Of a stretch of 40,010 bases of DNA, positions 1-26,133 are shown one piece after another; the stretch's first letter is position 1, and each line of letters begins with the position of its first letter. The translations under genes were made by a program, and so were the position numbers. The notes beneath the pieces are model-generated. The model had not been told where the DNA came from. It worked only from the letters and a program-made list of their open reading frames with translations, and ran no database searches. The stretch comes from Thermoplasmatota archaeon (GTDB taxonomy: Archaea > Thermoplasmatota > Penumbrarchaeia > Penumbrarchaeales > Penumbrarchaeaceae), in the NCBI GenBank assembly GCA_049472195.1, contig JBLIRG010000026.1, positions 1 to 40,010 of the forward strand, given 5' to 3'.

Positions 1-198
1 CGAAGGTTGTCGATGACCTCCTGGAATATCTCCACATCGAACAGATTGTCGAACCCGCCCAGTAGGAGTATGAAAACGGGACCGAAAACGAGACCCCCGA
101 GTATGTTCCCCACTATCGTGGGCTGATGGAACCTCTCGGCAACCTTCCCGAAGAAAAGCGCCGCAACGAGGAGCAGCAGCAGATAGATGAAAGAGAAC
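1..198 (-). CDS. Cation:proton antiporter (CPA2/Kef-like), N-terminal fragment; the gene continues beyond the window start
   Basis: Reverse complement of 1-198 translates from ATG (complement of 196-198) as MFSFIYLLLLLVAALFFGKVAERFHQPTIVGNILGGLVFGPV..., about 70% identical to the N-terminus of the adjacent 281..1513 product. No stop before the window edge. Confidence 0.6.
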
Positions 199-280
199 AT
201 GGTCTCGGCGGTAAAAACTCATCCCGTATAAAGTTACCCATGATATAAGGGGGAAAAATGCAGGAAATCGGGAATATATC

Positions 281-1513
281 CTATCCTCCCTCCTCGATCC
301 ATCCTTTCCTCATGAACAATTTCCCGGCGGATTTCAGCATGATCGGCGTCACCAGCGCCATGAAAGCGGCCATCAGGACCACCGCTGAATAAATGTCGGG
401 ACCGATGATCCCCGCCTTGAGGGCGATTGCCGCAAGTATGAGCTCCACCGCGGCCTTCCCGTTCATCCCTATCCCGACGAGTACGGACTCGGACCAGGTC
501 AACCCCGAAAGCTTCGCACCCAGCCCGGCACCGATCACCTTCCCGAAGAAACCGAGAACTATCAGCATCGGCAGAAACAGCGAAAACGCCCTGGGGGAAA
601 ACGTCACCGAAAAACCCACCCACGCAAAGAACAGCGGCGCGAAGAAGCCGAAAGCCCATCTCCCGAGAGCCTGCTGGGTCCTGTGATTGAGTGATCCCCG
701 GATCGCCATTCCACCCAGAAAAGCCCCGATCATAAGGTGCAGGCCCATTATATGCGCAACCAGTGCGATGAGCCCCGCGAACAATATTGTGATCCCGACC
801 CTCTCGGTCAATCTCATTTCCCTGGTCTCGGAATAGAATGTCTTGAGGATCCTGGGAAGAAGCCATAGCGATATTACGACGAATATGACCGCGAGTACCA
901 CGGTTCCTCCCACCGTGAGAGGCGACGGCAGATCGCCGGTCTTGGAAATCGACAGGAGAACGGAGAGTATTATGATCCCGATGATGTCATCGACTATGGC
1001 GGCATTTATTATCGTCATGCCGAACCTTGTGTGGATGGCATCCATCTGGATGAGTGTGGCGATGGACAGCGCCACGGCGGTGATCGACAGGGCCGCTCCG
1101 ATATAGAGCCCCACCATCCAGTCCCCGGTTGCCAGGTACCCCCCGCCAAATCCCAGCGTGAACGGAACTATTACGCCCAGTGCCGCGGTCAGGATACCGG
1201 TCCTGAAAGATGCGACGAAATCCCTGATCCTCGTCTCCAGGCCGGATGCGAACATCAGCATTATTATGGCGAACTCGATGAGGAAGGAGAGCTCGTCCTC
1301 AACGGAGGCGGGATTCAGGTTGGATATCATGGATTCTATCTGCGACAGATCCAGGTGGATGTTGATCGATTTGAGAACGGATATGAGAACCGGACCGAAT
1401 ATCAACCCGCCGAATATGTTTCCGACTATCGTAGGCTGTTTGTATCTCTCGGCCACCTTGCCGAAGAATATCGCGGCAATTAGGAGAAGCAGAAGATAAA
1501 CTATCGAAAACAT
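281..1513 (-). CDS. Monovalent cation:proton antiporter, CPA2/Kef/NhaP-type membrane protein (410 aa)
   Basis: 410-aa ORF. About 12 hydrophobic helices and Gly-rich membrane motifs typical of Kef-type Na+(K+)/H+ exchangers. Tandem paralog of the partial gene at 1..198. Confidence 0.7.
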   Translation of the reverse strand: MFSIVYLLLLLIAAIFFGKVAERYKQPTIVGNIFGGLIFGPVLISVLKSINIHLDLSQIESMISNLNPASVEDELSFLIEFAIIMLMFASGLETRIRDFVASFRTGILTAALGVIVPFTLGFGGGYLATGDWMVGLYIGAALSITAVALSIATLIQMDAIHTRFGMTIINAAIVDDIIGIIILSVLLSISKTGDLPSPLTVGGTVVLAVIFVVISLWLLPRILKTFYSETREMRLTERVGITILFAGLIALVAHIMGLHLMIGAFLGGMAIRGSLNHRTQQALGRWAFGFFAPLFFAWVGFSVTFSPRAFSLFLPMLIVLGFFGKVIGAGLGAKLSGLTWSESVLVGIGMNGKAAVELILAAIALKAGIIGPDIYSAVVLMAAFMALVTPIMLKSAGKLFMRKGWIEEGG

Positions 1514-1577
1514 GTATGGGATGGTGAATCACGGTATCAGTATATATTAGATTGTCCGAAAATCCAGCCGATCGCCG

Positions 1578-2600
1578 TCAAACCTCCGCGCCCGCCTCCT
1601 CCCTTCCGGCCATACCGTAATCCACGGCTGGCCCCACTTTCATCGATCCGGGGTAGATCCGGTTCTCCCTTCCCTCCCTGACCTTTCTCACCATTCCGAG
1701 TTTCTCGAGCTCGCCCACATGGTACGATACCATCATCCTGCCCATGTCCAGATACCTTGCTATCTCCGACTGGGACGATCCGGGCTTCCTCCTGACCGCG
1801 TCCATGACACGTTTCTGCGTTCCCTCCAGCATGGGTCCCTGGCTGGCCATTCCGTCCAGATAGAACCTCCTGTACTGCCGGTCCTGCTTGCTGAATATGA
1901 CCTCCTGAGTCTCCAGGATGTTGAGATGATGCGTAAGCACTCCATGAGCCAGGTCCAGGTCCTTGAGAACAGCAGAATAGTGTGCTCCGGGGTTATCCCT
2001 CAGATAATCCACTATCTTCTGCCGGGTCTCGTGATCCAGGATCCGATCCCTCCGGATCTTGGAGTAGAATGCGATTATGATGATCAGGATTATGAAACCG
2101 ATCAGGATCACCAGGAACGGCCCGCAGAGGAAAAGCGACATCCCCGCATCCGCCGACTCCTCTTCAGGAGCGCCGTCGCCGTCAATTCCATCGGGCGGGA
2201 CACCCTCGGGCCGATCATAATAATCCCGGGGATCGGTGCTGTGGTTGTACTCCAGCAGATTGGAGTAGCCGTCCCGGTCTTGATCGATCCGGGCATCGGC
2301 GGGATCGGTGGGATCGAGATTGTATCGAAGCTCCCATTTATCGTCCATCCCGTCCTCGTCAGTATCGTTCATGTTGGGATCGGTCGAGTTCTCGTACTCC
2401 TCCCTGTTGGACAGGCCGTCCATATCGTAGTCCCGGTCCGCATCCCTGGGATCTTCCTCGTCTAGTCCGTTTTCAAGCTCCCAGTCGTCGGGCATCCCAT
2501 CCGAGTCCGAATCCGCGGTCTCCTGTGAGATGGCATATGTCGATGAAAGAACGAGCAGGAGGAGGATCAGTAAAGCCGTGCGAGATACATATCCCGGCAT
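1578..2600 (-). CDS. Membrane-anchored transcriptional regulator: signal peptide, extracellular Asp-rich Ca-binding (TSP3-like) repeats, one TM helix, two cytoplasmic wHTH domains
   Basis: Start probably Met26 of the 365-aa ORF (ATG, complement of 2598-2600) with a GAGGAGG Shine-Dalgarno about 8 nt upstream. Longer alternative to 2675. Sequence MPGYVSRTALLILLLLVLS looks like a signal peptide. Repeats DSDSDGMPDDWELENGLDEEDPRDADRDYDMDGLSNREEYENSTDP. TM helix FLVILIGFIILIIIIAFY. Then two ArsR-like wHTH segments (ETRQKIVDYLRDNPGAHYSAVLKDLDLAHGVLTHHLNILE and RVMDAVRRKPGSSQSEIARYLDMGRMMVSYHVGELEKLGMVRKV). Confidence 0.55.
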   Translation of the reverse strand: MPGYVSRTALLILLLLVLSSTYAISQETADSDSDGMPDDWELENGLDEEDPRDADRDYDMDGLSNREEYENSTDPNMNDTDEDGMDDKWELRYNLDPTDPADARIDQDRDGYSNLLEYNHSTDPRDYYDRPEGVPPDGIDGDGAPEEESADAGMSLFLCGPFLVILIGFIILIIIIAFYSKIRRDRILDHETRQKIVDYLRDNPGAHYSAVLKDLDLAHGVLTHHLNILETQEVIFSKQDRQYRRFYLDGMASQGPMLEGTQKRVMDAVRRKPGSSQSEIARYLDMGRMMVSYHVGELEKLGMVRKVREGRENRIYPGSMKVGPAVDYGMAGREEAGAEV

Positions 2601-2634
2601 CCTGTAATCCTCCTCCCTTTGTTTCATCTCCTTT

Positions 2635-3672
2635 TCACTCCTCTCTCTCCTTAACGGATTCAATCCTTTTTCCATCTTCGGTCATACCGAAAAGAAACGG
2701 ATCGACCTCCTCGCTGTCATCGTGTCCCTCCACTACCTGCCGGGGGAAGGGGGATCTCTCTTCAGGGCGGGGATCGCGAATCTCGGTCTCCGCCTTGTCA
2801 TCTGCATCATCCCGATCCCTTCTCGATCTGATCCATGCCGCCGCGAACACCAGCACTCCGACCGCTGCCGCGATCATCACAGCAAACAGAAAGACACCGA
2901 TCAGGGTCGACGAATCGCTGTCACCATCCAGGGCCTCCTCCACGATACTGCCGCTACCATACTCCGTATCCGCGGGATTTATGTTCGGGTCCCGGTTCAT
3001 GTGATATTCTTCCAGGTTGGTCAAACCGTCGTCGTCATAATCACGAGATGCATCCCTCGGATCGGATGGATCCAGTCCGTGGTATCTCTCCCATGCATCC
3101 GGTATCCCGTCGTAATCCGAATCCTCGGAACTGCCCCTCACCTCGGTGTTGGTATACGAGGATCCTCCGATGCCCTCGGTGGACACCTCCGCCCTGCCCT
3201 TCAGTATTATCCTTCCGGACTCGAATATCAGAAGCTCGACCGAGTGGACGGTCCCCGCCTCTAGTTTCAGATTCCCCTGCTTGATCTCGGTCTCGTTCAC
3301 GCCGATGTCCCCGAGGTCGAACTGGGTCATCTGGGTTGCATGGTTGTTGTTCTCCACAACAGGCCAGGCATGTATGGCAACGCCCTTTGCTTCCATTGTC
3401 CCGTCGTTGGTCACATATACCGTCATGGTCACCTGAAGGTCATCGGATTCCAGTCCCGTGAAGAATACGTTCTCGATATAGAGATGGGGTGACTTCACAT
3501 CGGGCCCCGTATCGATATCATCCCTCGGGCCTCCCGACCCGCCGTCATAGCCCAGGACCACCGCAAGTACTGTTACGCATATCAGCGCCAGGGCGGCAAG
3601 AAGGGCGTAGACGGCCCCTGCAGGCACTTCCACCTTGCGTCCGTTTCTCCTTCTCTCGTCATCCATGGTCAT
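2635..3672 (-). CDS. Bitopic or polytopic membrane protein with extracellular domain and TSP3-like Ca-binding repeats, acidic cytoplasmic tail
   Basis: 345 aa. N-terminal signal-anchor AVYALLAALALICVTVLAVVL. Repeats DSDYDGIPDAWERYHGLDPSDPRDASRDYDDDGLTNLEEYHMNRDPNINPADTEYG, homologous to the repeats of the downstream regulator. Second TM LIGVFLFAVMIAAAVGVLVFAAAWI. Asp/Glu-rich C-terminus. Upstream TATA-like element and GGAGGT Shine-Dalgarno. Confidence 0.6.
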   Translation of the reverse strand: MTMDDERRRNGRKVEVPAGAVYALLAALALICVTVLAVVLGYDGGSGGPRDDIDTGPDVKSPHLYIENVFFTGLESDDLQVTMTVYVTNDGTMEAKGVAIHAWPVVENNNHATQMTQFDLGDIGVNETEIKQGNLKLEAGTVHSVELLIFESGRIILKGRAEVSTEGIGGSSYTNTEVRGSSEDSDYDGIPDAWERYHGLDPSDPRDASRDYDDDGLTNLEEYHMNRDPNINPADTEYGSGSIVEEALDGDSDSSTLIGVFLFAVMIAAAVGVLVFAAAWIRSRRDRDDADDKAETEIRDPRPEERSPFPRQVVEGHDDSEEVDPFLFGMTEDGKRIESVKEREE

Positions 3673-3759
3673 TACCTCCTTCAGCGGTTTTTTCTACCGC
3701 CTCGTGGAAAAAACATGGATTCGAGTATAATAACAAAGATTGGAAAGAGATTCTTACAA

Positions 3760-6069
3760 TTACCTCAGAACCCGGCCCGCCCTTCCGCAGGAACCGCATT
3801 TGAAATTGCAGTAGCCCTCTCCCTCGGGGATCCAGATCTTGCCGCCGCACCTGCAGTCGATGTCATAACCCCTCCCGGCTGATCGATCAGGCGGATCCCT
3901 TTTAGGGGTCCGGCGTGAAGATCCGGCAAGAGCGGGCCTTATCATTTCCGATCCGGCATCGTCCTCCCTGATCTTCTGAATCGGGGCAGGAACGGGCTTG
4001 ATATCTGCCTTCACCTCGAAGTCTTCCAGCTGGGGTGCGGTTCCTTCATCACGGGTCCGTTCACCTCCCAAACCTCTTTCGGAAGATCTCAGGGGAACCC
4101 CCCCGGAGGGTCTCGATATTGGAGCCGATCTGCCGGATATGTCCCTGACGGATTTCGTCCGGACGAGATCGTCCATCTCCCTGTCCCTCATCCTCCTCTC
4201 CTTGTCCAGGTTCATCCGCCGGTCCTCCTCCTGCCGTTTTCTCTCCTCGGCTTCCCTTTTTCTCCTGATCTTCTTCCCCGCCCCCCTCAGGGCGACGAGG
4301 AACAGTGCGGCAATGATACCGATGACAACGGCGGCTGCAATTCCCATGACCAGATTCTTCGGCCTCCGATACCATTTCAGGGGTTCGTCCTCCTCCTCGA
4401 CAGGTTCCTCCTCCCCGTTCACGGTGGCGATGTCCTTGAGATATGATTCTGCCGATAGACCGGTGGAATCGGTGTAATTCGCACGGATATGGTAATGATC
4501 GTGATCCTCCAGACCGGAAGTGTCCCATTCCACCTTGTAAAGATTCCCGGAACTGAAAGCCCCAGTTCCAATCAGGGTCCATGTGCTGTTATCGCGGGAG
4601 TAATGGAAGTAGACGGGATTCACGAGGGGGATCTCGTCGTCGACAACCTCCGCCCTGATCCAAACGGTCCCCGTCAGATGATCCCCTTCAGGCCGAACAA
4701 GGGTCACTCTCGGGGGGATCATGGGGAAGAAGTAGAACAGATCGTTCTCCTCGATCGTGTCTCCGAAGCCGTACCGGTCCGATATCTCGATCCTTACCGA
4801 GATGTATCCCTCCGGCAGCTGTTCAACGGGGATGGGAAGTTCGAACAGGTTGGGCCTGGCAAGATCCAGCGGATCCTGAAGGGTCATTTCTGTCCAGGGG
4901 ATGAAATCCCCGTCGTATCCCACGAATATCCCGATCTCAACGGGATATGCCAGGGGGATCCTCTTCATCGTCAGCAGAACGTGCCACCCGTCATCCCTTC
5001 GGCCGATATTCTCCAGTTTCAACGCCTCGGGAAGATTCACCACCCTGACATCGGTCTGATCCTCACCCTTCTGCCTCGGATCGCCCTCATCCCATGCCTC
5101 GGCGTGGATGGTGTAATTGCCGTTTTTTACCTCCTCCGTGTTCCATTCCACCGAGTAACCATCGGCGGGATCCGGATCGTTCCCTATCTTGACCTTCGCA
5201 TCCGAACCCTCCCCGGAGTAGAAGAACTCGACCCCCCTGCTGTTCACGTTTCCGTCGCTGTCGAACAGACTGGCCGAGAGGACAACCGTTCCCTTGAGGG
5301 AATCGGGGTCAGTTATCGGATTGAGACTGACCACCGGAGCGTATTCGTTGTCAATTGTGAATACAGGTGACGCCCGGGAGGCGGTCATACCGTACGTGGT
5401 CGTGGCATTTGCGAGGAGGATGTAATCCCCGTCCGGAAAATCCCGGGTCTCGAGAGAATACCTGTAGCTCCCGCTCGAATCGACTTCAGTTACAGCTCCG
5501 AGATATCCCATGGAACCGCTGATCGGGGAGATGAAGAGGCGAATGCCCTCCACGAGGTCGCCGTCATAATCGCGGCAGCTGAAAATTATCTCGGCCTCGT
5601 CCCGGATCACATCGCCCGATTTCGGATAGTTCCATGTGATGACCGGAGGATCGGGATTCCATATGCTCACCGGACCGTGAAAATATTCGGTCGAATTTCC
5701 CGAATCGTCCTTTGCATTGATCCTGAAATAGTAGTCCCCGTCAACGTAGTTGGTGGAGTTGAGGCTGAATACAAACCGGTTCTCGGAATCGGCCTCCTCG
5801 ATTATGCCGACCGGCTTCCATGTGTAGTTGTCCGATGATATCTGCAGGGACACGTAGTTCACTACCTGTCCCTCGGAATCGGCGTGTATGACAAAATCGA
5901 AGACGCCGCTGATCTGCTCGCCCGTCGAGGGAGAGGATACGCTGACGATCATACCCGCTCCCCGGGCCGGCAGGCTGCTGTCGGCTTCTCCGCCTGCAAG
6001 GGTCAGAAGCATCAGAACTGCCGTCATGAGAACAACGGCTCCCTTCGCACCTGGCATGACCTGTTCCAT
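3760..6069 (-). CDS. Large cell-surface protein (769 aa): signal peptide, repeated Ig-like domains, single TM, cytoplasmic Arg/Glu-rich coiled segment ending in a 4-Cys zinc ribbon
   Basis: Signal peptide AVVLMTAVLMLLTLAGG. Repeated xGTVxIxAxVxDD beta-sandwich-like units. Motif FHYSRDNSTW shared with the 1502-aa neighbour. TM LVMGIAAAVVIGIIAALFLVAL. Tail RRKREAEERKRQEEDRRMNLDKERRMRDREMDD ... DCRCGGKIWIPEGEGYCNFKCGSCG. Confidence 0.65.
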   Translation of the reverse strand: MEQVMPGAKGAVVLMTAVLMLLTLAGGEADSSLPARGAGMIVSVSSPSTGEQISGVFDFVIHADSEGQVVNYVSLQISSDNYTWKPVGIIEEADSENRFVFSLNSTNYVDGDYYFRINAKDDSGNSTEYFHGPVSIWNPDPPVITWNYPKSGDVIRDEAEIIFSCRDYDGDLVEGIRLFISPISGSMGYLGAVTEVDSSGSYRYSLETRDFPDGDYILLANATTTYGMTASRASPVFTIDNEYAPVVSLNPITDPDSLKGTVVLSASLFDSDGNVNSRGVEFFYSGEGSDAKVKIGNDPDPADGYSVEWNTEEVKNGNYTIHAEAWDEGDPRQKGEDQTDVRVVNLPEALKLENIGRRDDGWHVLLTMKRIPLAYPVEIGIFVGYDGDFIPWTEMTLQDPLDLARPNLFELPIPVEQLPEGYISVRIEISDRYGFGDTIEENDLFYFFPMIPPRVTLVRPEGDHLTGTVWIRAEVVDDEIPLVNPVYFHYSRDNSTWTLIGTGAFSSGNLYKVEWDTSGLEDHDHYHIRANYTDSTGLSAESYLKDIATVNGEEEPVEEEDEPLKWYRRPKNLVMGIAAAVVIGIIAALFLVALRGAGKKIRRKREAEERKRQEEDRRMNLDKERRMRDREMDDLVRTKSVRDISGRSAPISRPSGGVPLRSSERGLGGERTRDEGTAPQLEDFEVKADIKPVPAPIQKIREDDAGSEMIRPALAGSSRRTPKRDPPDRSAGRGYDIDCRCGGKIWIPEGEGYCNFKCGSCGRAGRVLR

Positions 6070-6229
6070 CCCTTGTACAAGTGATCCGACGGGATTGATA
6101 TATCATATTTGCGTCGTCAAATCCATTTTCCGAAAGCCCGACAATACCCGATTTACGGCCTTTACCAGGGGATTAATGCTGTTATCCTGATTGACGGGGG
6201 GCGGAGGATGGGGTGGTGGATCGAATCGG

Positions 6230-9200
6230 TCACTCCTCCCAATCTTCGAACTCCTCCAGCTCCTCGAACTCCTCCAGCTCTTCTTCTTCCTCACCCCACT
6301 CCTCGACTTCCCACGTCTCCTCCTCCACCGGCCTCGCCTTCGGCTTTTTCACCTTCCGGTGCTTGTCAGCCTTCTTCTCGATCGAGGGTTTCTTCTTTTT
6401 CTTCCTGGGTTTTTCAGCCGGTTTGACCTTCTTTGCTTTTATGGGCTTCTTCTTCGCTTTCCTGGCCGGCATGACACCTTCCGGAAGATCGACGTCGACC
6501 TCTTCCTCCCCCCACTCCGGAATGGCCGCCTCGGGGGCGCCCCTCATCTCATCCTTCAAGGGAAGGGAGGTAGCGAATACGGGGCCCTGAATTTCCTGTC
6601 CGTAGGCAGGACCCGAATCTCCGATATCGGCTCCAACCATGAACTCGTCAAGGAATGCGGCGTCATCGGGGGATATCTCGGGGGGAACTGGTGGTTCATA
6701 GACCTCGGCCGGCGGTTCCCCGTACTCCCCGTATCTCATTGCCTCCGCCGAGAAAACCTCCTCTTCGGCGGCGGGCTCCTTCGGAGGTCTCTCCGCCTCC
6801 CGCGGTTTCTTCTCCCCAATTTCCGGGAGCGGTTCTGAGATGCCTTTCCTGGCCCTTCTCTCCCCCGAGAATATGAAGAACAGACCTACGATCAGGATCA
6901 ACAGAATGAATATCACTATTCCTATGACCGCGATCAAACCGGTGTTGATCCTCCCGTCATCCCCGTCAACATCCGGGACCTCCACCTCTCCGTTCATGAC
7001 CTCGTACGATGTCTTGGACGTCCAGCTCACATCAACGCCATCTGCGTCCGTGACCTTCACCCTCACAAGATAGCCCCTGGCATCAGGGAATCTCGGGCTG
7101 CCGTCAGACTCTTCCTCCTCCGTGTCCCAGTCCACATAATACGTGACGGCCTCCCAGGGTATGAAGCCGGAATCGTCTGCCAGGATCGAAGTGTTGGTCA
7201 GATTGGTCCACGATCCCTTGGAGAAGACGGAAAATACCACGTTGTCGACATGAATGAATTCCTCGTCGCTTATGTTGAACGCCAGTCTTACGACGCCGGA
7301 CAGAACGGATCCGGAGAGCGGCAGGTTCGGCTCGAGGATCGGGTTGTACCTGTTATCCACCACGATATTCGATATCATATCCGAGGCATATTCATCGTCG
7401 AGATCGTATACCTCCACCATCAGGTCGTAGATGCCGTCATCCACATCTCTGGTATCCCACGTGATCTGGGCGAGATCCCCGGCAAGCGTGGCTCCCGCGA
7501 GCCTGATCCACTCTCCTCCTGCCTCCCGGTAGAAGAAGGAGATGTAAGTCCGGTCGAAATTGGCGTCCCGATCCGTGATCCTGGCCTTTAGATGGAGCGT
7601 TCCGCTGACCTCCTCGTTGTCGGTTATCCCCTCGAACTGAACCGAGGGCGTGTAGATATTGTGAACGATCATGAAGGCGGGGTGTTCGACATTTGCATTC
7701 AGGAAGCTCTCATCCTCGACGGAAACCATGAGCGAATAGTTGCCGTTGTCGAAATCCCTTGTGTTCCATGAATAATAATATGTATCATTATGGAACGGAC
7801 CTGACAGATTGCCCAGTAACGCATACTTGGAATTGAATGCGAGGTTGTCCCTTATCCACAGGACCGCCGGAAGGATCAGGTCATCGTCCGGATCGGTGAT
7901 CTGGACCGATATGTTGACCGTTCCGGAGATATCTTCTGTTCCCATCGGAGTGATGAAGCTGATCTCGGGCATGTACTTGTTGTCTATGAAAACCGGACCG
8001 ATGTGCCTGCCCTCTCCTTCGATCCCGAAATCGGTCGAGGCATTGACCATGAACCATATCGGACCGTCGGCAAAATCCTTCGTATCTATCTCTACGGTAT
8101 AATCGGTTCCGCTTCCCCCGGCGGGGTTGTCGACCTGAGCCAGAGGTATCCACGTCGAATTATCCCTCGAATAGAAGAAGTTCACAGGTTTTCTCAGGAG
8201 CTCGCCCCCGAACGTCGATACGTCCGCCGTGACCTCGGTGACCCCTTCCAGAACGAAACCCTCCAGGGGATAGATGATCGTGACCAAGGGGGGTTTATGG
8301 TTGATGACCGATACGCTCCGGACCGTTGCGGAAACCGAATTACCCTGGAAGTCCTCCACGTCGGCCCTGATGGTGTACAGCTTGTTCTCGAAATTGCTGG
8401 TGTTCCATACCTTGACGGCAGTGTCCCCCTCCACCCGGTCAGGAAGGCCGTTTCCCGGAAACGGGCTCCAGGCGGCCCCGTCATTGACGGACCAGAGGAA
8501 AACCACGTCGGCCGGATCCGCATCACCGTCGTAATCGAACACGCGGGCCCGAATCTCGAATAATCCCTTGATCTCCTGAAACATGACTGGGCTCAGGATG
8601 AATATTTCCGGATCTGCCATGTTCCTGTCCGCATCCGATACGACCAGCCTCCCATCCCCGGTCCACGACATTATCCTGAGATCGGAATAACCCTCGGTAC
8701 CGTTGTCACCGATCGATACGATCTCCCACCCGAAGTCCTTCAGACCGTTTCTCTGTGGGGCCTTCTCATCAGATGTGCTTATGAGGACAGGCCCTTCTTC
8801 GAGGGGGAGGTGGAAAACATGGATGACGCCCGTGCCGTTCTCGGCCTCCTTTTTCGGGTCCGATACCGCAAGACAGTCCGTCAATATGGTCTTGGTCGGA
8901 GGGATTCGGGCCATTGATGTTTCCGATCCCTGTGTGATGCCGTTGATCGTGATGTTGCTGCTCTGAAGTTCGATCGTATCGAAATTCCTCCAGTAGCTGT
9001 CGTTGCCGCTGAAGACGTGGACCTTGCCGTCAGCGGGATCGGATATGAGAAGATCGTCCCATCCGTCCCCGTCAATATCCTGGGCGTGCAGTTCGGATCC
9101 GAGCCCCGTCGGTCCGCTTATGGTCCTGAATGAATTGTTGACAGATCTCACTGTCAGCCTCAGATTGTCGAATCCCATGGCGCCGAACTCTGTTGCCGCA

Positions 9201-15538: not shown

Positions 15539-17221
15539 TTATGTACTAACTGGACCAGTGGCAACGTTCGGATGTGATAACACATCCCTGAACGCTGACA
15601 ACGATTCGTCGGTGGAATCGATATCGTATATCCACGTCTCATCGATCCCGTTCCACCAGATCGCCATCCAGATATTTGGATAATCTTCGAATAGCGATTT
15701 GAGACCTGTTTCGATCCATTCTGATTTACTCCCGCCGACCTCGTTGCATGCGAACTCGGTGATCATGAACGGCTTGGAAGAGTAACGCCTCATGTAATCA
15801 TCATAGAGATCCAAGTAGCATTCCTCGAAATCTCTCCAAACTTCGGTGGGACGGGTGATGCCGTTGTTGTAGGCTGTAAGCCCGATCCAGTCAACCATAT
15901 CATCCCCGGGATAATACAGCGGAGGAGCCTGCCATTTATAATCCGGATAGGTACGATCATGAGGATTCCATACGAATTGAACATTATCTGCCCCGATATA
16001 ATCGAATATTGTATGAATTCGAACCCATGCCATGATATACAGATCCGGATCGAGACCGTAAAACCAAGAACACCACTGGGTCCAGTCGCCGTTCATCTCG
16101 TTTGCGAATCTCAAGAAGATCGGCTCTGACAGATCCCTAAGCCCGATCGCCCACTCAACGAGATATTGATCATATTTTCCGTTGAGAATATCAAGAAGAA
16201 CTACTTGACCATCGAATTCCTCACTGTGTGAGTTCACATATGGTTGTAAGGTCAGAAGTAAGACATGTCCCTGATCGTAATGATTGTAAATGAAATCCTT
16301 TGCCTCACCGAATTGGCAGGTGAAATTGAAATAATCCATGAAGAATGGAAAATCATACAGAAGGCGGGTTTCAAGAACCTTGATTTCGTCCCAGTACTTA
16401 CTATGGGGTGCATGATAAATCCCGATTAACTTCTGATCTTCAGGGATCGATATGGTCGTCTTATCACCTTCAATGTTGATCTCGTTAACCAGAGGTTCGG
16501 GAATCTGTGATCTTTCAACATGAGCTTTCTCATCCCAGAAATCCATGGTTGATAGGGACATTTCAAGAATATATTTTAACATGGATATATTATCAGAACT
16601 ACTTTTCAGGAAGACGGTAAATAAGGTCCTCTCATCCAGTTGATAATTATATTCAAAATAGTGATTCAGATCGATATCGATCGATGATATTTTGGTCCGT
16701 CGATATTCTATTATATTGAACGTTCTCCCGCCGATCACACGATCTTCATCCGATACATGGGTAATCTCCCCGTAGCCATTTCGAATGTTCAAATTGGAAT
16801 AATCGATAAAGGTCTGGACCTCTTCAAAAGATGTATTTAACACATGCTTCATCACCGTGATCTTCATATCCGGATCCCTGAAACATAAAACAAAATCGGA
16901 ATCGGAATCGTCGATCGTCCAATATGACGGTATAGCCATCCGGTAACCGTCGATATAATTCCAGAACATATTATGTGTTGAGTTGAATGGTGTCGTCGTT
17001 ATCATAAAATGAGATTGATCTCCAATCAATCCGGAAGAATATTCGGCCATTTTCGCATTGATCATATCAAGATCAATATCTCCTGCATTTTTTCCGAGAT
17101 CATTGATATCATCTCCGGATGAAATGATCTCTACTATTACCGCATAAAATGATGAACTACTAATGGATATTAAACATATGATAGAAATCACTGGGATTCG
17201 TATCACTCTTTCATCCATCAA
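15539..17221 (-). CDS. Secreted or membrane-anchored protein with C-terminal glycoside hydrolase family 26-like (beta-mannanase-like) domain
   Basis: 560 aa. N-terminal hydrophobic signal or anchor. C-terminal half carries the GH26-like acid/base motif LRFANEMNGDWTQWCSWFYG and nucleophile motif FMITEFACNE. Gene is markedly AT-richer than its neighbours. Confidence 0.55.
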   Translation of the reverse strand: MMDERVIRIPVISIICLISISSSSFYAVIVEIISSGDDINDLGKNAGDIDLDMINAKMAEYSSGLIGDQSHFMITTTPFNSTHNMFWNYIDGYRMAIPSYWTIDDSDSDFVLCFRDPDMKITVMKHVLNTSFEEVQTFIDYSNLNIRNGYGEITHVSDEDRVIGGRTFNIIEYRRTKISSIDIDLNHYFEYNYQLDERTLFTVFLKSSSDNISMLKYILEMSLSTMDFWDEKAHVERSQIPEPLVNEINIEGDKTTISIPEDQKLIGIYHAPHSKYWDEIKVLETRLLYDFPFFMDYFNFTCQFGEAKDFIYNHYDQGHVLLLTLQPYVNSHSEEFDGQVVLLDILNGKYDQYLVEWAIGLRDLSEPIFLRFANEMNGDWTQWCSWFYGLDPDLYIMAWVRIHTIFDYIGADNVQFVWNPHDRTYPDYKWQAPPLYYPGDDMVDWIGLTAYNNGITRPTEVWRDFEECYLDLYDDYMRRYSSKPFMITEFACNEVGGSKSEWIETGLKSLFEDYPNIWMAIWWNGIDETWIYDIDSTDESLSAFRDVLSHPNVATGPVST

Positions 17222-20967: not shown

Positions 20968-22074
20968 TCATATCCTTACCAGATCGTAATCGGATGACCC
21001 CATACCGAGCTCCTCGGCGTAGGTGATCTGAAGATAACCGTTGGTCTTCTCCCTCATTCCCTTGAATTTATCCTTTCCAGGTTCATGGTTCTTCTTCAGC
21101 TTCGTATCGAGAAATCCCTGGCTTGAATTGACGAGATCGTAGGAAGCCCTGTCAATGGCCACCGGATCCCTGGATGCCAGGATCCCTATGTCGGGAACTA
21201 TCGGATGATCGCTCCATGAGAAGCAGTCGCAGTCGGGGGATATCTTCAACAGGAAATTGATGTAACCGCATCTGTCCCTCTTCCCGTCCACAGCTCCGTA
21301 TGCGTATTCCACCATTCTTTCCATAAACGGGTCGATCTCGGATTCCCAGTCCAATCCTATGGCATCTGCTGGACATACGGTCATGCACTCGCCGCATCCG
21401 ATGCATTTCTCCCTTACTATGAAGGATTTCCCGCCCTCGATGTGCGGTGCGTCCACCGGGCAAATATCCAGGCACTCTCCGCAGCCAATGCATCTGGCGG
21501 CCGCGACCTTGGGTCTTGCCGAGTGCTGGTCCATCTTGCCGTAGGCGGTTGCGCATCCCATTGCAAGGTTCTTGATCGCACCCCCGAAACCGGCCATCTC
21601 GTGGCCTTTGAAATGGCTCATCACGATCATCGAATCGGCCCGGTGAATATCTCCGGCGATCCTCAGGCTTCCGAAGTGCTTTCCGGCCATCTTGACATTG
21701 ACCAGGTTCTTTCCCGTAAGCCCGTCTGCGATTATGATCGGGGCCCCCACTACAGCGTAGTCGAATCCGTGAAGCACTGCCGTCTCGATGTGATCCACCG
21801 AATTGTGCCGGCTTCCCTTGTACAAGGTATTCGTATCGGTAAGGAAAGGTCTTCCTCCGGATTCCTTTATGCGATCAACGACCGGTCTGACGAATATGGG
21901 ATTGATGAACGCATCCCCGCCCATCTCCCCGAAGTGGATCTTGACGGCAGTGAGATCATCTTTCTTGATCAGGTCACTAAAACCAGCCCTGTCGAACAAT
22001 TTACCGATCTTGCTCGCCTTGTTGCTCCCAGTATTCCTTGCCTTCAGATCAGCGAAGTAAACCTCTGATGCCAT
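20968..22074 (-). CDS. DUF362-domain protein with two [4Fe-4S] ferredoxin-type cluster motifs
   Basis: 368 aa. Two CxxCxxCxxxCP motifs (CIGCGECLDICPV, CIGCGECMTVCPA) embedded in a DUF362-like scaffold. Confidence 0.55.
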   Translation of the reverse strand: MASEVYFADLKARNTGSNKASKIGKLFDRAGFSDLIKKDDLTAVKIHFGEMGGDAFINPIFVRPVVDRIKESGGRPFLTDTNTLYKGSRHNSVDHIETAVLHGFDYAVVGAPIIIADGLTGKNLVNVKMAGKHFGSLRIAGDIHRADSMIVMSHFKGHEMAGFGGAIKNLAMGCATAYGKMDQHSARPKVAAARCIGCGECLDICPVDAPHIEGGKSFIVREKCIGCGECMTVCPADAIGLDWESEIDPFMERMVEYAYGAVDGKRDRCGYINFLLKISPDCDCFSWSDHPIVPDIGILASRDPVAIDRASYDLVNSSQGFLDTKLKKNHEPGKDKFKGMREKTNGYLQITYAEELGMGSSDYDLVRI

Positions 22075-22690
22075 ACAGATGCCCCCGTATATCTTGTATC
22101 ATCTCGGAAACCGTGAGTTATCCTTATGGCGAAAACATTATTTTATTCTTTCAAAATAAATGGTTGAATGGCGACTGAACTGCGATAGACGCATTTTTTC
22201 AAAAGGTTTGGCGGGGAATTAACCCCGCCGTTTTCCTCTCTTCCCTTTACTCACCCGTGGGGTGGGTCCCATAACCTCCGTTGTTCAGAGGATCGTCATA
22301 TACAATGAGGTCCGTCCTTCGGGACCGATAATGATCCGCATCATTGATCCGGATCTTCACATGGCGAATGTTCTGATATCAATTCCCTTGAAAACACTTC
22401 TTCGGCACCTCCTGGATCATTCATCAACATCCGCACATTTTCTCTCCTTTATCACCCGTTGTTTTCATTCTTCATCGTATCCTCGTTTTCCCCGTTCCAC
22501 AATTAATATTATGTTTAAATGATTATATGACTATTTTTAATGACATTAATGAACTTTTATTCTAAAATTCAATTATAAATACGGATCTTGGATCCCTTGC
22601 ATGTTTTCAAACTACAGGATCGGGGATCATAATATGATCGGGATTCCCGCGGAAATATCAGAAAAGTATATATATGGATTATGGAAAACT

Positions 22691-22889
22691 ATCGGATTTT
22701 TCAATTTAGTTATATACTCTTGATATTGATATAAAACATAGAGGCGAGGGGGCTCCCCGGAGTGCAATGGTACGGGCCTTCCGGAAAGCCCTTGAAATCC
22801 CTCTAGATAGTATAGTACACATATGGTATTAGAAGATGTCGAAAAAAAACGAGGGATTCCGCCTGAAAAACGCAAAGGAGGTGAAAATA
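22691..22889 (+). promoter_or_regulatory. Conserved roughly 200-nt upstream element, copy A: GGATTTTTCAAT box, TATA box, GTGCAATGGTACGGGCC and CTTGAAATCCC blocks, AGGAGGTGA Shine-Dalgarno
   Basis: Block-wise homologous, with conserved spacing (box to GTGCAAT 71-72 nt; GTGCAAT to ATG 124-128 nt), to copy B at 25935-26133. Confidence 0.6.
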
Positions 22890-23027
22890 ATGGAAAGGAG
22901 AACCGACAATGCATCTGACCGCGATGGAGGCATATTCTACGATTGGTTCCCAACGGAGGAGATAATTGCGCCCTCGTATCTGGTCCTCAGACTCATCAAC
23001 CTGTACTCGTTCAGGTATCCGAGATGA
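22890..23027 (+). CDS. Small ORF A (45 aa), hypothetical peptide MERRTDNASDRDGGIFYDWFPTEEIIAPSYLVLRLINLYSFRYPR
   Basis: Strong Shine-Dalgarno AGGAGGTGA 7 nt upstream. The start region (ATGGAAAGGAG vs ATGGAAGAGGA) and the C-terminal ...LYSFRYPR motif are homologous to small ORF B (…MYNCRYPRC). Confidence 0.45.
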   Translation: MERRTDNASDRDGGIFYDWFPTEEIIAPSYLVLRLINLYSFRYPR

Positions 23028-23145
23028 ACTGCAGGGAGATCTTGACAATCAAGGACAGGCGAGAACATCGGAATAAACCGAAAAAGGGGAGAATGACAGA
23101 AAAACTTATATAGGCCTGCAATAAAACTATAGGATTTCTGATAAA

Positions 23146-23179
23146 CCATATATATACTCCCCAATGATACTTCATCTGA
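23146..23179 (+). promoter_or_regulatory. Third copy of the island promoter motif (ATAGGATTTCTGATAAACCATATATATACTCC)
   Basis: Shares ATMGGATTT box plus a TATATA box about 14 nt downstream with copy A (22691-22724) and copy B (25935-25967). Confidence 0.45.
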
Positions 23180-23227
23180 GGGTGGGGGAACGGAGCGGGG
23201 ATTGAATGCGTAAAAAGCCCGAAATAA

Positions 23228-23285
23228 AACGGAAAGAAACGGGTTCCGCCCATTTCTTTCCGTTACCATTTTCAACTTATTTTCC
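23228..23285 (+). terminator. Hairpin (16-bp imperfect inverted repeat AACGGAAAGAAACGGG / CCCATTTCTTTCCGTT) followed by T-rich tract
   Basis: Stem 23228-23243 and 23249-23264, loop TTCCG, then ACCATTTTCAACTTATTTTCC. Lies about 50 nt downstream of the third promoter copy. Confidence 0.45.
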
Positions 23286-23389
23286 ATATTTGAGAATATT
23301 CTAATGAATTATCATTATTCGCGAAATATTCCGATCCCGAATGGAAAAATTATATCTATACTACTACCCATTCTAAGATCGAGGGCTGT

Positions 23390-24754
23390 ATGAAGATAGA
23401 TAGAGAATCCCAGGTAATGTACGGAGTTCACCTCCTACTCGGTGTCGATGACTACTCAAGGGGACATGACAAGCAGGAGCTTTCGAACGCACTCGGAATA
23501 TCAAGCAACACGCTCGATCTCTATCTTGCCCATCTTTCAAAGCGGGATCTGATCAACAGGAAGAAATCAAGATACCAGAAGGAGATCAGACAGATCATAA
23601 AATTGACCGAGGAGGGGGCAAAGGAGGTTCAGAAGATCGAATCGGACATCAACAAACTCCTCCTTACCAACGAGCGGCACAATATTCCCAACTGCATAAA
23701 CGTAACAGATATTCTGAGCAGGATCCCCGATCCCCTCGCGAAGATATTCTTCCTTGCGGTCTACAACAAATACAAGAGCTTCGATCTGCCGATGTTCCTG
23801 GAGACGCTGAGGATCTCCAAGCAGGATGTGAACATAATCAACCTCTTTCCGGGATCAGAGGGAAGCTATTCCGATACAGGAAGAATCCCCCTTATCGAAT
23901 CGATATTCAAAACATGTTTCTACGGGGATATCGACTGTGAAATATTGGACACCGATGTCTGGGGCGAGAAGGATATCGATGCATTTCTCGTCGTCGCCGA
24001 GGCCAGGCTCAAACAGGGAAAGCTCAAAGACGCGGAGATGATTTATGATTATATTCTGTCACCTAAACTCGAGATCACTCAGAACCAATGGTTTATAGCA
24101 CGCCTGGGAATGGTAAACATACTGCGAAGACAGGGCAAATTCGATGAAGCTTTGGAGCAGCTCGATGAGATTCACGACATGGTCGATGACAGCGTATACC
24201 AGGCCTTCATAAAGGAGAACAAAGCCTTGATCTACACCATAACCTACCAAAATCAGAAATCCATGGATATGTTCAAAAGGTCAATAGCATCATTCACCAC
24301 TCATGGCCTACCACTTATGCTTTCTATCGCATACAATAACCGCGGGACCTGTTACTTCAGGATGGAAGATTACCAGAATGCGGAGAAGGACTGGATCAAA
24401 GCGAGAAAATTCGCCAAGAAAGCACAGTCCGCTTACTGCGAGGCTGCCATCCTGTGCAATCTATCGGATACGACTGCCATGAAGGGAAAGATAGATCTTG
24501 CTGTCAAATATCTCAATAAGGCCTTCAAGATATTCAAGGAGATTCCTGATTACGAGGGAATGGCAAGTGTTTACTACAACTTCTCACTCCTTTATCTTGA
24601 GAGCGGGCAGCTTGAAAACGCATTGGAAAATTTCCGAAATTCGATTACGGTTGCAGAACCTCTTCCTTCTGATTTTGAAAAGAAAGACTGGAGAAAAACC
24701 TTCATCCAGAGGGGGAAGGACCACGGTTTCGACTCTATAGAAAATATAATATAA
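23390..24754 (+). CDS. wHTH-TPR protein (N-terminal winged helix DNA-binding domain plus C-terminal tetratricopeptide repeats)
   Basis: 454 aa. N-terminus ELSNALGISSNTLDLYLAHLSKRDLINRKKS is HTH-like. C-terminal half has multiple 34-residue TPR-like units (for example AYNNRGTCYFRMEDYQNAEKDWIKARKFAKK, LCNLSDTTAMKGKIDLAVKYLNKAFKIFKE, YYNFSLLYLESGQLENALENFRNSI). TATA-like box about 35 nt upstream. Confidence 0.6.
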   Translation: MKIDRESQVMYGVHLLLGVDDYSRGHDKQELSNALGISSNTLDLYLAHLSKRDLINRKKSRYQKEIRQIIKLTEEGAKEVQKIESDINKLLLTNERHNIPNCINVTDILSRIPDPLAKIFFLAVYNKYKSFDLPMFLETLRISKQDVNIINLFPGSEGSYSDTGRIPLIESIFKTCFYGDIDCEILDTDVWGEKDIDAFLVVAEARLKQGKLKDAEMIYDYILSPKLEITQNQWFIARLGMVNILRRQGKFDEALEQLDEIHDMVDDSVYQAFIKENKALIYTITYQNQKSMDMFKRSIASFTTHGLPLMLSIAYNNRGTCYFRMEDYQNAEKDWIKARKFAKKAQSAYCEAAILCNLSDTTAMKGKIDLAVKYLNKAFKIFKEIPDYEGMASVYYNFSLLYLESGQLENALENFRNSITVAEPLPSDFEKKDWRKTFIQRGKDHGFDSIENII

Positions 24755-24823
24755 TGATCATTATTATTCACAAATGGATTGAAATATTCAATCAATTTGA
24801 ATAAATATGTGGGGTGATGTGAT

Positions 24824-25420
24824 TTGGTAAAAAAAGCGTTAATCATCATTTCCGATGATTACCACGGAATGACCAATGGTTTCGAATTGGAAAAAGCGGA
24901 AAGGCTCAGAGATGATTTGAGAAGCAAGGGATGGATCGTTAATAGTGACGATAATTCAAATGATCAGATCGTGGTCAATAGAAATGATTTTTTAGCTCTC
25001 AGGGATTGGTTGAGGGACCACCCAAACCAGCCGGATGATGAATTTCTCGTGTATATCGCCGACCAGACCCATCTGATTGCCGGAGACGATATCAAGATAT
25101 CATTTTCGACTGGAGAGGCGAATATTGTCGATGAGATCGACTATGAATTCAAAGATCATCTTTGTGTTGAGTTCACACTCGTATTTGGGGGTCCAAAATC
25201 GGGAGGTGCCATCCATGATCAGACACATCTCGGACCAAAATGTCTTGTGATATGCTCGATGCATGAATCAGAGGATTATAATGATGATCTGTTTGATCTT
25301 CAGTACAGCCTCATGGGAGATAATTTCCTGGAGGCTGGAAGACAGGAAAGGGCCAGGCTGCTTCTTGAGAATCCTGTACAACACGTACAATTGAAGAATA
25401 GGAACAATCCGGTACCGTGA
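24824..25420 (+). CDS. Hypothetical protein (198 aa), possibly a caspase-like (peptidase C14-type) fold. Start uncertain (TTG at 24824; first ATG is Met16)
   Basis: N-terminal strand KKALIIISDDY, then helix ELEKAERLRDDLRSKGWIVN, then DEFLVYIADQTH (His position) and KCLVICSMHE (Cys position). These follow the strand/His/Cys order of caspase-like domains. Internal repeat DQTHL appears twice. Confidence 0.35.
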   Translation: MVKKALIIISDDYHGMTNGFELEKAERLRDDLRSKGWIVNSDDNSNDQIVVNRNDFLALRDWLRDHPNQPDDEFLVYIADQTHLIAGDDIKISFSTGEANIVDEIDYEFKDHLCVEFTLVFGGPKSGGAIHDQTHLGPKCLVICSMHESEDYNDDLFDLQYSLMGDNFLEAGRQERARLLLENPVQHVQLKNRNNPVP

Positions 25421-25434
25421 ACGAACATCGGCAG

Positions 25435-25740
25435 TTAATGATTTTTAATCCAGCTGCCGATGATTATTCCTTTTTCTTTTCTCAATTTATCCTTTTTTTC
25501 CTTAATATATTCGTATTCTTCTTCGTTTTTGATTTTATGGATCATCGCGTCGAGGTCCATCCTCTCTATTTTGCATACCTCGCTGTACATCGCACGAATT
25601 GCCCTGACTCTCCTCCTCCCCGCACATTTCGGCAAAGGCCTTTCCGGTCTTTCACCATCGATGTAACCGTTGTATATCTCCCTGATTATATCCTTGTTCG
25701 TTTTACCCATTTCAATTCCCTCCTGATCAAACAATATCAT
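25435..25740 (-). CDS. Hypothetical small basic protein (101 aa)
   Basis: ORF MILFDQEGIEMGKTNKDIIREIYNGYIDGERPERPLPKCAGRRRVRAIRAMYSEVCKIERMD...KEKKDKLRKEKG. TATA-like ATTTATAT about 25 nt upstream on the minus strand, so possibly leaderless. The plus-strand overlapping ORF is poly-Phe junk. Confidence 0.4.
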   Translation of the reverse strand: MILFDQEGIEMGKTNKDIIREIYNGYIDGERPERPLPKCAGRRRVRAIRAMYSEVCKIERMDLDAMIHKIKNEEEYEYIKEKKDKLRKEKGIIIGSWIKNH

Positions 25741-25934
25741 ATGAAAAAGGAAATATAAATAGATAAAGGATTGTGTTCTTCAGGAAATATAATCTTCATT
25801 TAGTTCAAATAATGTTAAAATATTCTCATATTTATACATTCATGGCAGGTCGAATATTCAATTAGGATAGGATAAATAATGCATGATATGGGAAAAAGCG
25901 GAGAGTAAACCTTATATATGCCTTTCCGGAAAAT

Positions 25935-26133
25935 ATAGGATTTTTCAATCCCCTTATATATCCTGATAGCCGATATTCAATTGCAGCGAGGAGGAATGCC
26001 GACCGGTGCAATATGGTACGGGCCCGGGCGGCGATCCTTTGAAATCCCGAAAGATCCGAACCGGATCGTCATGATCCCGGGGGGGATCGGTGGGGATTTC
26101 TTCCGCTAGAAAATACCGAAAGGGGGTGTAGTG
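25935..26133 (+). promoter_or_regulatory. Conserved roughly 200-nt upstream element, copy B (ATAGGATTTTTCAAT box, TTATATAT, GTGCAATATGGTACGGGCC, CTTTGAAATCCC, GGGGGTG Shine-Dalgarno)
   Basis: Homologous to copy A with conserved block order and spacing. Confidence 0.6.

Follow-up and report, generated by a model that had tools for sequence, protein, structure and literature searches.

Transmembrane transcription regulators (TTRs), which combine a transmembrane (TM) region and a DNA-binding domain in one polypeptide, are a catalogued class of proteins, averaging about four per archaeal genome. Among the described systems, ToxR/ToxS, TcpP/TcpH and CadC are built around single-pass proteins that join an extracytoplasmic sensor to a cytoplasmic winged-helix DNA-binding domain (PMC10269533), and in ToxR/ToxS and TcpP/TcpH a small membrane partner with an extracytoplasmic beta-rich domain is encoded alongside. 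ArnR and ArnR1 of Sulfolobus acidocaldarius act on promoters while membrane-bound and thus provide an experimental precedent for regulation from the membrane in archaea (PMC6396743). The analysis presented here concerns a protein of this general kind, encoded on the minus strand of a 40,010-nucleotide (nt) contig from an NCBI metagenome-assembled genome of a Thermoplasmatota archaeon; the whole contig was analysed and is referred to as the window. We give about an even chance to the reading that this protein is a type I single-pass regulator that binds, from the membrane, an inverted repeat at the promoter of its own operon, and that its input is either Ca2+-dependent folding of the ectodomain or pairing with a co-encoded partner. 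The main additions made here are a candidate operator for this regulator and the recognition that its TM and DNA-binding half belongs to a very large, uncharacterised Thermoplasmatota family.

The regulator resembles the described systems in outline and departs from them in its construction. A predicted TM region and predicted DNA-binding domains (PF24266, HTH_24, HTH_20, MarR_2 and HTH_5, all above cutoff) are found in one polypeptide, as in other TTRs. Relative to ToxR and CadC, the predicted topology is inverted, with the sensor at the N-terminus and the DNA-binding part at the C-terminus, and two tandem ArsR-type winged helices take the place of a single OmpR-type domain. Unlike in ToxR/ToxS, the partner gene lies upstream, the sensor is a bare array of putative calcium loops, and the function is predicted from sequence. 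ArnR has an N-terminal helix-turn-helix (HTH), a HAMP-like region and C-terminal TM helices, and has no real ectodomain; ArnR and ArnR1 also differ from the present regulator in phylum and HTH family. The regulator may work like ToxR, yet with a C-terminal DNA-binding domain of the ArsR/MarR type and an N-terminus predicted to be outside it is not a member of the ToxR/CadC type.

Residue numbers throughout refer to the longest open reading frame, which encodes 365 amino acids (aa), starts at 2675 and ends at 1578 on the minus strand. Three in-frame ATG codons are available, at 2675 (M1), 2627 (M17, the start of the NCBI model) and 2600 (M26). Since the orthologue alignment begins at M17 (MK+EE...) and an AAGGAG sequence lies between the stop codon of the partner gene (2637..2635) and the ATG at 2627, with that stop 7 nt before the ATG, M17 is most likely the start. 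An earlier reading of this DNA, made from the letters without database searches (the sequence-only reading), had placed the gene at 1578-2600; the minus-strand gene ending at 1578 stands, and the orthologues move its start from M26 to M17.

The same reading had proposed an Asp-rich repeat ectodomain, a single TM helix and two ArsR-type winged helix-turn-helix (wHTH) domains, an architecture that is confirmed by Pfam, hydropathy and orthologues. Kyte-Doolittle hydropathy reveals one strong TM segment (score 3.22 at aa 183-201) and a short N-terminal hydrophobic region (h-region) at about aa 33-51. The h-region is followed by A-I-S/Q-E, the slash marking the cut, and the pattern [AS]-x-[AGS]/Q-[ED] is kept in the orthologues; the conserved small-x-small/Q-[ED] site after an h-region therefore argues for a signal peptide that is cleaved there. 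Across 41 orthologues, the 15 residues on the N-terminal side of the TM helix average 0.76 Lys plus Arg and 6.7 Asp plus Glu, and the 15 residues on its C-terminal side average 5.9 Lys plus Arg. This charge bias is a clear positive-inside signal and, together with hydropathy, places both winged helices in the cytoplasm and the N-terminus outside. The outcome that the sequence-only reading had named as refuting, winged helices outside the cell, is thus not what the topology shows. In the AlphaFold2 (AF2) model, a single helix (aa 180-227) joins the TM segment to helix 1 of the first wHTH without a break, and in the orthologue alignment the junction of TM and juxtamembrane segments is the best conserved part of the protein.

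The first wHTH is matched by PF24266 (HTH_HVO_0163_N) over aa 216-274, with an expectation value (E) of 2e-19 and 69.8 bits against a cutoff of 31; HVO_0163 has been called ArsR-type (PMC10294847). The second, at aa 283-340, is matched by HTH_24, MarR_2 and HTH_5, each above its own Pfam cutoff, and on the regulator HTH_5 scores 33.6 bits (cutoff 22) and HTH_20 scores 42.5 (cutoff 27). The succession of three helices and two strands (H-H-H-E-E) occurs twice in the AF2 model. Its predicted local distance difference test score (pLDDT) exceeds 90 over most of both domains, with means of 86-96 for blocks of 10 residues, and falls below 50 at aa 277-280, between them. Both recognition helices carry an ArsR-like [ST]-[HY]-H signature (THH and SYH), invariant or nearly so in the orthologues, and in the first wHTH residues T248, H249, H250, N252 and E255 are invariant. 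Searches of the PDB with Foldseek match the single wHTH domains to ArsR and MarR repressors. Based on the conserved signature and these fold matches, both domains are predicted to be competent for DNA binding. Each half thus resembles ArsR/SmtB repressors (6j05 and CzrA, 6cda) in its helix-turn-helix, wing and recognition-helix signature, whereas the regulator as a whole is a membrane-anchored covalent tandem rather than a homodimer and scores below the metalloregulator cutoff (NCBIfam NF033788, HTH_metalloreg, 40.5 bits against 55). The only solved sequence relative is 5duk_A (E 4.5e-10 to the first wHTH), a "putative DNA binding protein" of 77 aa without assigned function, which consists of one isolated domain, in contrast to the tandem of the regulator. 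Beyond the second wHTH, most of the orthologues among P0001-P0036 have disordered C-terminal tails of 20-45 aa that end in [AVI]-E-x-COOH (GAEV, VEA, AEN, VET), an ending that looks like a docking peptide, and GRGPFEGPAPEM is common to the tails of several orthologues.

The ectodomain (aa 51-178) contains 31 Asp and has a net charge of -37, and four 12-residue DxDxDG loops start at aa 55, 82, 104 and 131. Over 30-32 aligned orthologues, the residues of the ectodomain that never vary are almost solely positions 1, 3, 5, 6, 9 and 12 of these loops, together with a few Trp, Met and Pro; selection on the ectodomain therefore appears to work on calcium coordination and not on a ligand pocket. Tandem DxDxDG loops are shared with bacterial TSP3 repeats (PF18884) and with the EF-hand segment of Bap region B. 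Pfam TSP3_bac (PF18884) reaches 21.2 bits on the regulator of the window, below the curated cutoff of 25, and precomputed PF18884 matches are present on several orthologues. The full-length AF2 model has a mean pLDDT of 83 and about 97 over aa 55-155, and a separate model of the ectodomain reaches 92. With Foldseek, the sole match of the ectodomain is weak and local, to the EF-hand segment of Staphylococcus aureus Bap region B (7c7r and 7c7u; 46 columns, root-mean-square deviation 1.0 A, 39-41% identity). Because Foldseek recovered no thrombospondin structure for the ectodomain, the TSP3 label is one of sequence motif and orthologues; phmmer of the ectodomain against PDB sequences also gave no match. 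The equivalog model of the Amuc_1099 family (NF042425) scores 55.1 against a cutoff of 50, yet the match spans only positions 106-148 of a 321-position model, and it is a match to repeats, not orthology.

A search for the same fusion found about 40 full-length Thermoplasmatota orthologues of 320-400 aa and 38-75% identity, all with the complete fusion, which come from independent NCBI, JGI, ENA and Logan assemblies. Among the species-representative genomes of GTDB, 17 loci were found, all from Thermoplasmatota. The sequence-only reading had itself raised the possibility of a frameshift that makes the gene a fusion artefact of two genes; these would be a secreted repeat protein and a soluble regulator, joined by a frameshift or by mis-assembly. 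Errors of this type do occur in these metagenome-assembled genomes: in the assembly that holds L014, a frame break divides the orthologue of the regulator (5535..6444), and P0040 (221 aa), which seems to lack an ectodomain, is only the 3' half of this broken gene. Nevertheless, an uninterrupted fusion throughout the independent assemblies, with the TM and juxtamembrane junction as its best conserved part, effectively refutes the artefact, which is hardly credible.

The gene directly upstream of the regulator encodes its partner, a 345-aa membrane protein with a DUF7490-like domain. The gap between the two genes is 3-50 nt in most loci and is without promoter-like sequence, which implies that they are co-transcribed as an apparent operon. 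In related genomes, the usual gene order is MgtE, GatD, an FG-GAP/Big_7 protein of 1240-1500 aa, the DUF7490 protein, the regulator and one or two Na+/H+ exchangers, with a Big_7 protein of about 700 aa sometimes between the FG-GAP/Big_7 protein and the DUF7490 gene. At the distant loci L004, L021 and L022, only the pair of DUF7490 and regulator genes is kept and the other synteny is lost. We regard this pair as the functional unit, with the remaining adjacency looking like inherited gene order. Residues 184-235 of the partner are 63% identical to the first TSP3 unit of the regulator (aa 55-106, E 4e-17), bearing out the repeat homology claimed earlier. That claim had extended to neighbouring TSP3-repeat surface proteins in the plural, and this does not hold, as only the 345-aa neighbour has TSP3 and Pfam finds none in the 769-aa and 1502-aa proteins of the window. 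In all 13 partner loci examined, exactly one TSP3 double unit lies between the beta-sandwich and the second TM. As the matching unit adjoins the TM in the partner, the two proteins would therefore show the same calcium-loop module at about equal distance from the membrane. Since the repeat homology extends to a conserved gene pair, an interaction between regulator and partner, or a shared ligand, is a reasonable suggestion.

Alignment of the regions upstream of the partner gene reveals a highly conserved element, ATTGTMAA-N6-GTTCCAAT, which is followed by N-TTTG and then by the TATA-like RTTWAATA. Written as ATTGnAA...TTnCAAT, the element forms an imperfect 8-6-8 inverted repeat in which the ATTG-N14-CAAT spacing is fixed, and the copy in the window overlaps the stop codon of the 769-aa gene. 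A 42-nt weight matrix was scanned over both strands of the window and loci L001-L022 (about 290 kb). It gave one match of 41-57 bits per locus and two in L004, and all strong matches are on the gene strand just upstream of the operon. The match in the window is at 3764..3723 (minus strand, 46.7 bits); the others are at L001 9590, L003 6827, L004 4115 and 6717, L006 4288, L008 499, L011 4370, L012 4372, L013 4294, L014 4441, L015 2652, L016 4383, L018 4328, L019 3405, L021 4001 and L022 296. A strong copy (at least 40 bits) is thus present in 17 of the 18 distinct loci with enough upstream sequence. The eighteenth (L005/L017), which lacks DUF7490, has a weak copy (15 bits) that keeps GTTCCAAT unchanged and lies 56 nt upstream of the regulator; the element therefore follows the regulator and not the partner. 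The second copy in L004 precedes a 684-aa paralogue that bears the same TM and tandem-wHTH tail. A rescan of 731 kb found nothing else above 26.6 bits, and the highest-scoring non-sites are in loci for whose selection a part of the motif had already been used.

Specificity resides in the full 42-nt matrix alone. The loose pattern GT-N9-GTTCCAAT-N-TTT-NN-TTWWATA gave 58 matches on metagenome contigs, of which 55 are unrelated (one recurrent human-gut sequence and AT-rich chance matches) and only L037, L057 and L077 are true sites. The motif scan picked up one sequence, TATGTCCATTCTGTGTTCCAATTTTTCGTTAAATAGTT, in dozens of gut samples (L023-L079, about 30 human-gut metagenome contigs), and it is unrelated to the regulator. 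Allowing one mismatch, the window contains 26 copies of the 8-mer GTTCCAAT where 40 are expected, which is no enrichment. Different elements occupy the same promoter position in other tail-bearing genes. P0171 and P0197, which belong to a subfamily with CARDB ectodomains and are 36% identical, share AAATGTTGTACAACAT directly upstream of their TATA boxes, and this sequence contains the perfect palindrome GTTGTACAAC; at L082 and L084 the position holds GTTCAAAT, GTTCCAGT and GTACCAAT. Such subfamily-specific promoter elements, whose conservation goes well past what neutral evolution would leave, are typical of self-regulating DNA-binding proteins, which in itself does not prove the identity of the binder.

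The mechanism proposed for the regulator starts from features that are seen in the sequences and models: the architecture, the topology bias, the conservation, the gene pairing and the promoter element. After removal of the signal peptide, about 100 folded residues would remain outside, consisting almost wholly of the four EF-hand-like DxDxDG loops, and the TM helix would run uninterrupted into helix 1 of the first of the two ArsR-type wHTH domains in the cytoplasm. The two non-identical domains would form a built-in pseudo-dimer, each taking one half-site of the inverted repeat. A single chain with two winged helices and a two-part site is also found in plasmid RepA. Bound next to the TATA box, the regulator would control both itself and its partner while in the membrane, and the position of the site, upstream of the TATA box, makes activation slightly more likely than repression. 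The input would be Ca2+-dependent folding of the ectodomain, or pairing with the single TSP3 unit of the DUF7490 partner, the two proteins holding their TSP3 units at the same height above the membrane. The partner might then modulate the oligomeric state or stability of the regulator, by analogy with ToxR/ToxS and TcpP/TcpH. What we infer, by contrast, is that the regulator binds this element, that its input is Ca2+ or the partner, and in which direction it regulates. The direct transmission of a surface signal to DNA that the sequence-only reading had proposed, with Ca2+ as a possible signal, is conjectural in the same way.

Several observations weigh against the preferred reading. The first is geometric: the first wHTH lies only about 10 residues from the membrane on a rigid helix, where access to DNA may be hindered and may require release. 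The regulator could accordingly be an inactive tethered precursor, in which the ectodomain becomes open to a site-1 protease once Ca2+ or the partner is lost, and intramembrane cleavage then frees a soluble tandem wHTH, as with Notch or anti-sigma factors. TSP3 and EF-hand repeats are expected to unfold without Ca2+, the linker at aa 150-178 is predicted to be disordered and would be a plausible protease site, and the presence of the same tail on many large surface proteins recalls receptor-type precursors. However, the genes of the conserved cluster include neither a site-2 protease nor a rhomboid that could be recognised, the orthologue alignment reveals no conserved helix-breaking motif in the TM, and the characterised single-pass regulators ArnR and ToxR act from the membrane (PMC6396743, PMC10269533), so that we consider proteolytic release quite improbable.

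The second concerns the fold matches of the module and the proteins that carry it. With the two-domain module as query, the best Foldseek matches in the PDB are the tandem winged helices of RPC34, TFIIIC, ESCRT-II, ScpB and SelB, which serve as protein or RNA scaffolds. In addition, the same tail is found on many adhesin-like proteins of 800-1600 aa, which would be odd for classical sensors. Both points fit a cytoplasmic docking module, acting through protein-protein contacts or non-specific nucleoid binding, that anchors or clusters surface proteins, the TSP3 units being structural Ca2+-dependent joints of a surface layer shared with the neighbouring giant Ig-domain proteins. ESCRT-II, ScpB and RPC34 head the matches to scaffolds, the module ends hundreds of adhesin-like proteins with CARDB, PKD, Big_9, PEGA, CarboxypepD_reg and beta-helix domains, and the conserved C-terminal [AV]-E-x peptide would suit docking; other surface proteins of the cluster have different small cytoplasmic tails, such as the zinc ribbon on the 769-aa protein and on distant DUF7490 partners. 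Such a role is not easily reconciled with the strong conservation of an ArsR-like DNA-reading signature in both recognition helices, nor with the subfamily-specific palindromic elements conserved at the promoters of tail-bearing genes, and docking is an unlikely alternative.

The third concerns the candidate operator. The copy in L005/L017 is weak, the loose motif by itself is unspecific, and no second copy was found in the 40-kb window, for example at the promoter of the Na+/H+ exchanger. Another factor could also be what binds the element, or the element could be a specialised part of the promoter itself. Regulation of its own operon from the membrane nevertheless remains the reading that we prefer, at the even confidence stated at the outset.

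The architecture had been called unusual in the sequence-only reading, a description that can no longer be maintained: TTRs are already catalogued, a haloarchaeal parallel exists, and the C-terminal TM and tandem-wHTH block defines a very large family. A profile of this block, run against 1.84 billion cluster representatives, matched 8581 at E<=1e-3, 3735 at E<=1e-10 and 136 at E<=1e-30, superseding a homologue search with the cytoplasmic part alone that had found just six short proteins. The best 150 matches are proteins of 150-1643 aa, and all of them carry the block at their extreme C-terminus. About 138 of 145 of the best representatives have a hydrophobic segment whose end lies 141-170 residues from the C-terminus, and about half of the best also have an N-terminal signal-like segment. 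Among 61 sampled members, all of which match PF24266, the N-terminal parts contain surface-type domains (CarboxypepD_reg, CARDB, Big_9, PKD, PEGA and He_PIG), and every sampled member that bears a source name is from Thermoplasmatota, including Methanomassiliicoccales. No description of this family was found in the literature. The haloarchaeal parallel is provided by P0083 and P0088 (Halobacteriales), which consist of a signal peptide, a beta-sandwich, at least five TSP3 repeats, a TM helix, an acidic linker and a C-terminal DUF7343 wHTH. Like the regulator, they have TSP3 repeats outside, one TM and a C-terminal wHTH; unlike in the regulator, the wHTH is single and belongs to another Pfam family, the acidic linker in the cytoplasm is long, and a beta-sandwich is added. 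They are probably an independent fusion. Also from Halobacteriales, P0097 appears to be a frame-shifted copy that lost the wHTH.

Table 1. Positions in the window of the regulator, its predicted parts, the partner gene and the sequences upstream of the operon.
Feature	Position	Strand	Description
Regulator gene	1578..2627	-	349 aa from M17; predicted type I membrane protein with C-terminal tandem wHTH; NCBI model P0001 100% identical
Signal peptide (predicted), M17-S50	2526..2627	-	charged n-region, h-region of about 15 residues, A-x-S/Q cut site
Ectodomain repeats, aa 55-149	2229..2513	-	two TSP3-like double units, equal to four DxDxDG loops predicted to bind calcium
Acidic juxtamembrane linker, aa 150-178	2142..2228	-	low confidence; pLDDT <50 at aa 168-179 (AF2)
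TM helix, aa 179-204	2064..2141	-	conserved YSKIRKDRLLDHETRQ directly after
Juxtamembrane helix and first wHTH, aa 205-274	1854..2063	-	PF24266; recognition helix GVLTHHLNILE
Second wHTH, aa 283-342	1650..1829	-	HTH_24/MarR_2/HTH_5; recognition helix MVSYHVGELE
Disordered C-terminal tail, aa 343-365	1581..1649	-	pLDDT <50 at aa 346-365; ends [AVI]-E-x-COOH
Partner gene (345 aa)	2635..3672	-	N-terminal anchor, DUF7490-like beta-sandwich, one TSP3 double unit (aa 184-222), TM (aa 257-275), charged cytoplasmic tail
Conserved leader	3673..3717	-	CATGTTTTTTCCAC at 3717..3704; GC hairpin GGCGG-loop-CCGC at 3701..3684; Shine-Dalgarno GGAGG
Probable TATA box	3725..3733	-	TTATTATAC; partner-regulator operon; by analogy with the TATA box of the exchanger promoter
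Candidate operator	3739..3760	-	imperfect 8-6-8 inverted repeat ATTGTAAG-AATCTC-TTTCCAAT, 22 bp, directly upstream of the TATA box

Between the TATA box and the start codon of the partner gene lies a leader with three features conserved across L001-L022 and L037, namely CATGTTTTTCYCAC, a GC hairpin whose arms co-vary between loci, and a Shine-Dalgarno sequence. The CATGTTTTTCYCAC block is complementary to the region of the Shine-Dalgarno sequence and AUG, and ViennaRNA predicts a long stem that pairs the two (z <= -2.9 in 11 of 15 loci, range +0.1 to -5.5). With a TATA box centred at -27, the position that it has at the exchanger promoter, transcription would start at CAC/GA (the slash marking the start) and the 5' arm would be outside the RNA. 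Because the 5' arm may thus lie outside the transcript, the complementarity may represent a switch that acts on translation or else an inverted repeat in the DNA that flanks the start site. When the leaders were aligned with MAFFT, RNAalifold found no consensus structure for them, probably from misaligned arms, and Rfam at both thresholds returned nothing relevant to the leader.

Downstream of the regulator, the Na+/H+ exchanger has its own TATA box within 1514..1577 (minus strand), TAATATATA in the window and TTACATATCTTG in relatives. As this box is centred about 27 nt before the ATG, the exchanger mRNA is apparently leaderless. The exchanger was rejected for now as a regulatory target, its own promoter being without the element and its adjacency being lost in distant loci. 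The adjacency of GatD, MgtE and the thermosome gene is likewise lost there, and these neighbours, with the exchanger, are therefore likely to reflect inherited gene order and not a functional link.

Other surface proteins neighbour the pair. In L004, proteins of 1301 and 684 aa (160..4065 and 4326..6380) are encoded directly upstream of the DUF7490 and regulator genes and end in the same TM and tandem-wHTH tail, so that three such genes stand in a row. In the window, the C-terminus of the 769-aa Big_7 protein (3760..3860, minus strand) is a CxxC...CxxC zinc ribbon (CRCGG...CGSCG) in a cytoplasmic tail, and the DUF7490 partners of L004, L021 and L022 carry a similar ribbon. The C-terminal 200 aa or so of the 1502-aa FG-GAP/Big_7 protein (6230..6830, minus strand) form a long cytoplasmic tail after its TM, with a Lys-rich run (KKKKPIKAKKVK...KKKKKP) and then an extremely acidic end (EEWGEEEEELEEFEELEEFEDWEE). 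The remaining genes are ordinary chromosomal ones: thermosome, GatD, MgtE, diphthamide synthase, and NuoF/G-like and formate-dehydrogenase-like oxidoreductases. Searches of the window for tRNAs and Rfam matches found none, and a scan for sigma-70 promoters and terminators was set aside as not applicable to an archaeon. GC content is 0.40-0.44 at 16001..17000 and 22001..26000, compared with about 0.55 elsewhere; these stretches, possibly acquired islands, contain part of a GH26-like gene (15539..17221) as well as a TPR protein (23390..24754) and open reading frames without Pfam match.

Very little work has characterised how uncultured Thermoplasmatota transduce signals, and experimentally documented archaeal membrane-bound regulators are only few, ArnR being an example. 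Against this background, the locus is a compact and testable system: the DNA-binding module has about 160 residues, its candidate site is a defined 22 bp, the ectodomain has about 100 residues and conserves nothing but calcium coordination, and a co-encoded partner has a matching repeat. A more speculative notion, which we hold only tentatively and think rather doubtful, is that the TM and tandem-wHTH tail marks an archaeal receptor class in which adhesin-like ectodomains are wired directly to promoter binding at subfamily-specific operators, with the TSP3 protein as its minimal member. If true, Thermoplasmatota ectodomains as different as Ig, PKD, CARDB and beta-helix domains and bare calcium-loop arrays would signal without a kinase or second messenger, the TSP3 member would be a Ca2+-dependent heteromeric switch with its DUF7490 partner, and the whole would amount to a contact- or cation-sensing outside-in pathway specific to archaea. 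Should the link to promoters fail, the tail would instead be a module of a new kind that anchors surface proteins on the cytoplasmic side. Should it hold, a role would be assigned to thousands of proteins that are labelled "winged helix-turn-helix transcriptional regulator", and many large archaeal surface proteins might be receptors as well as adhesins.

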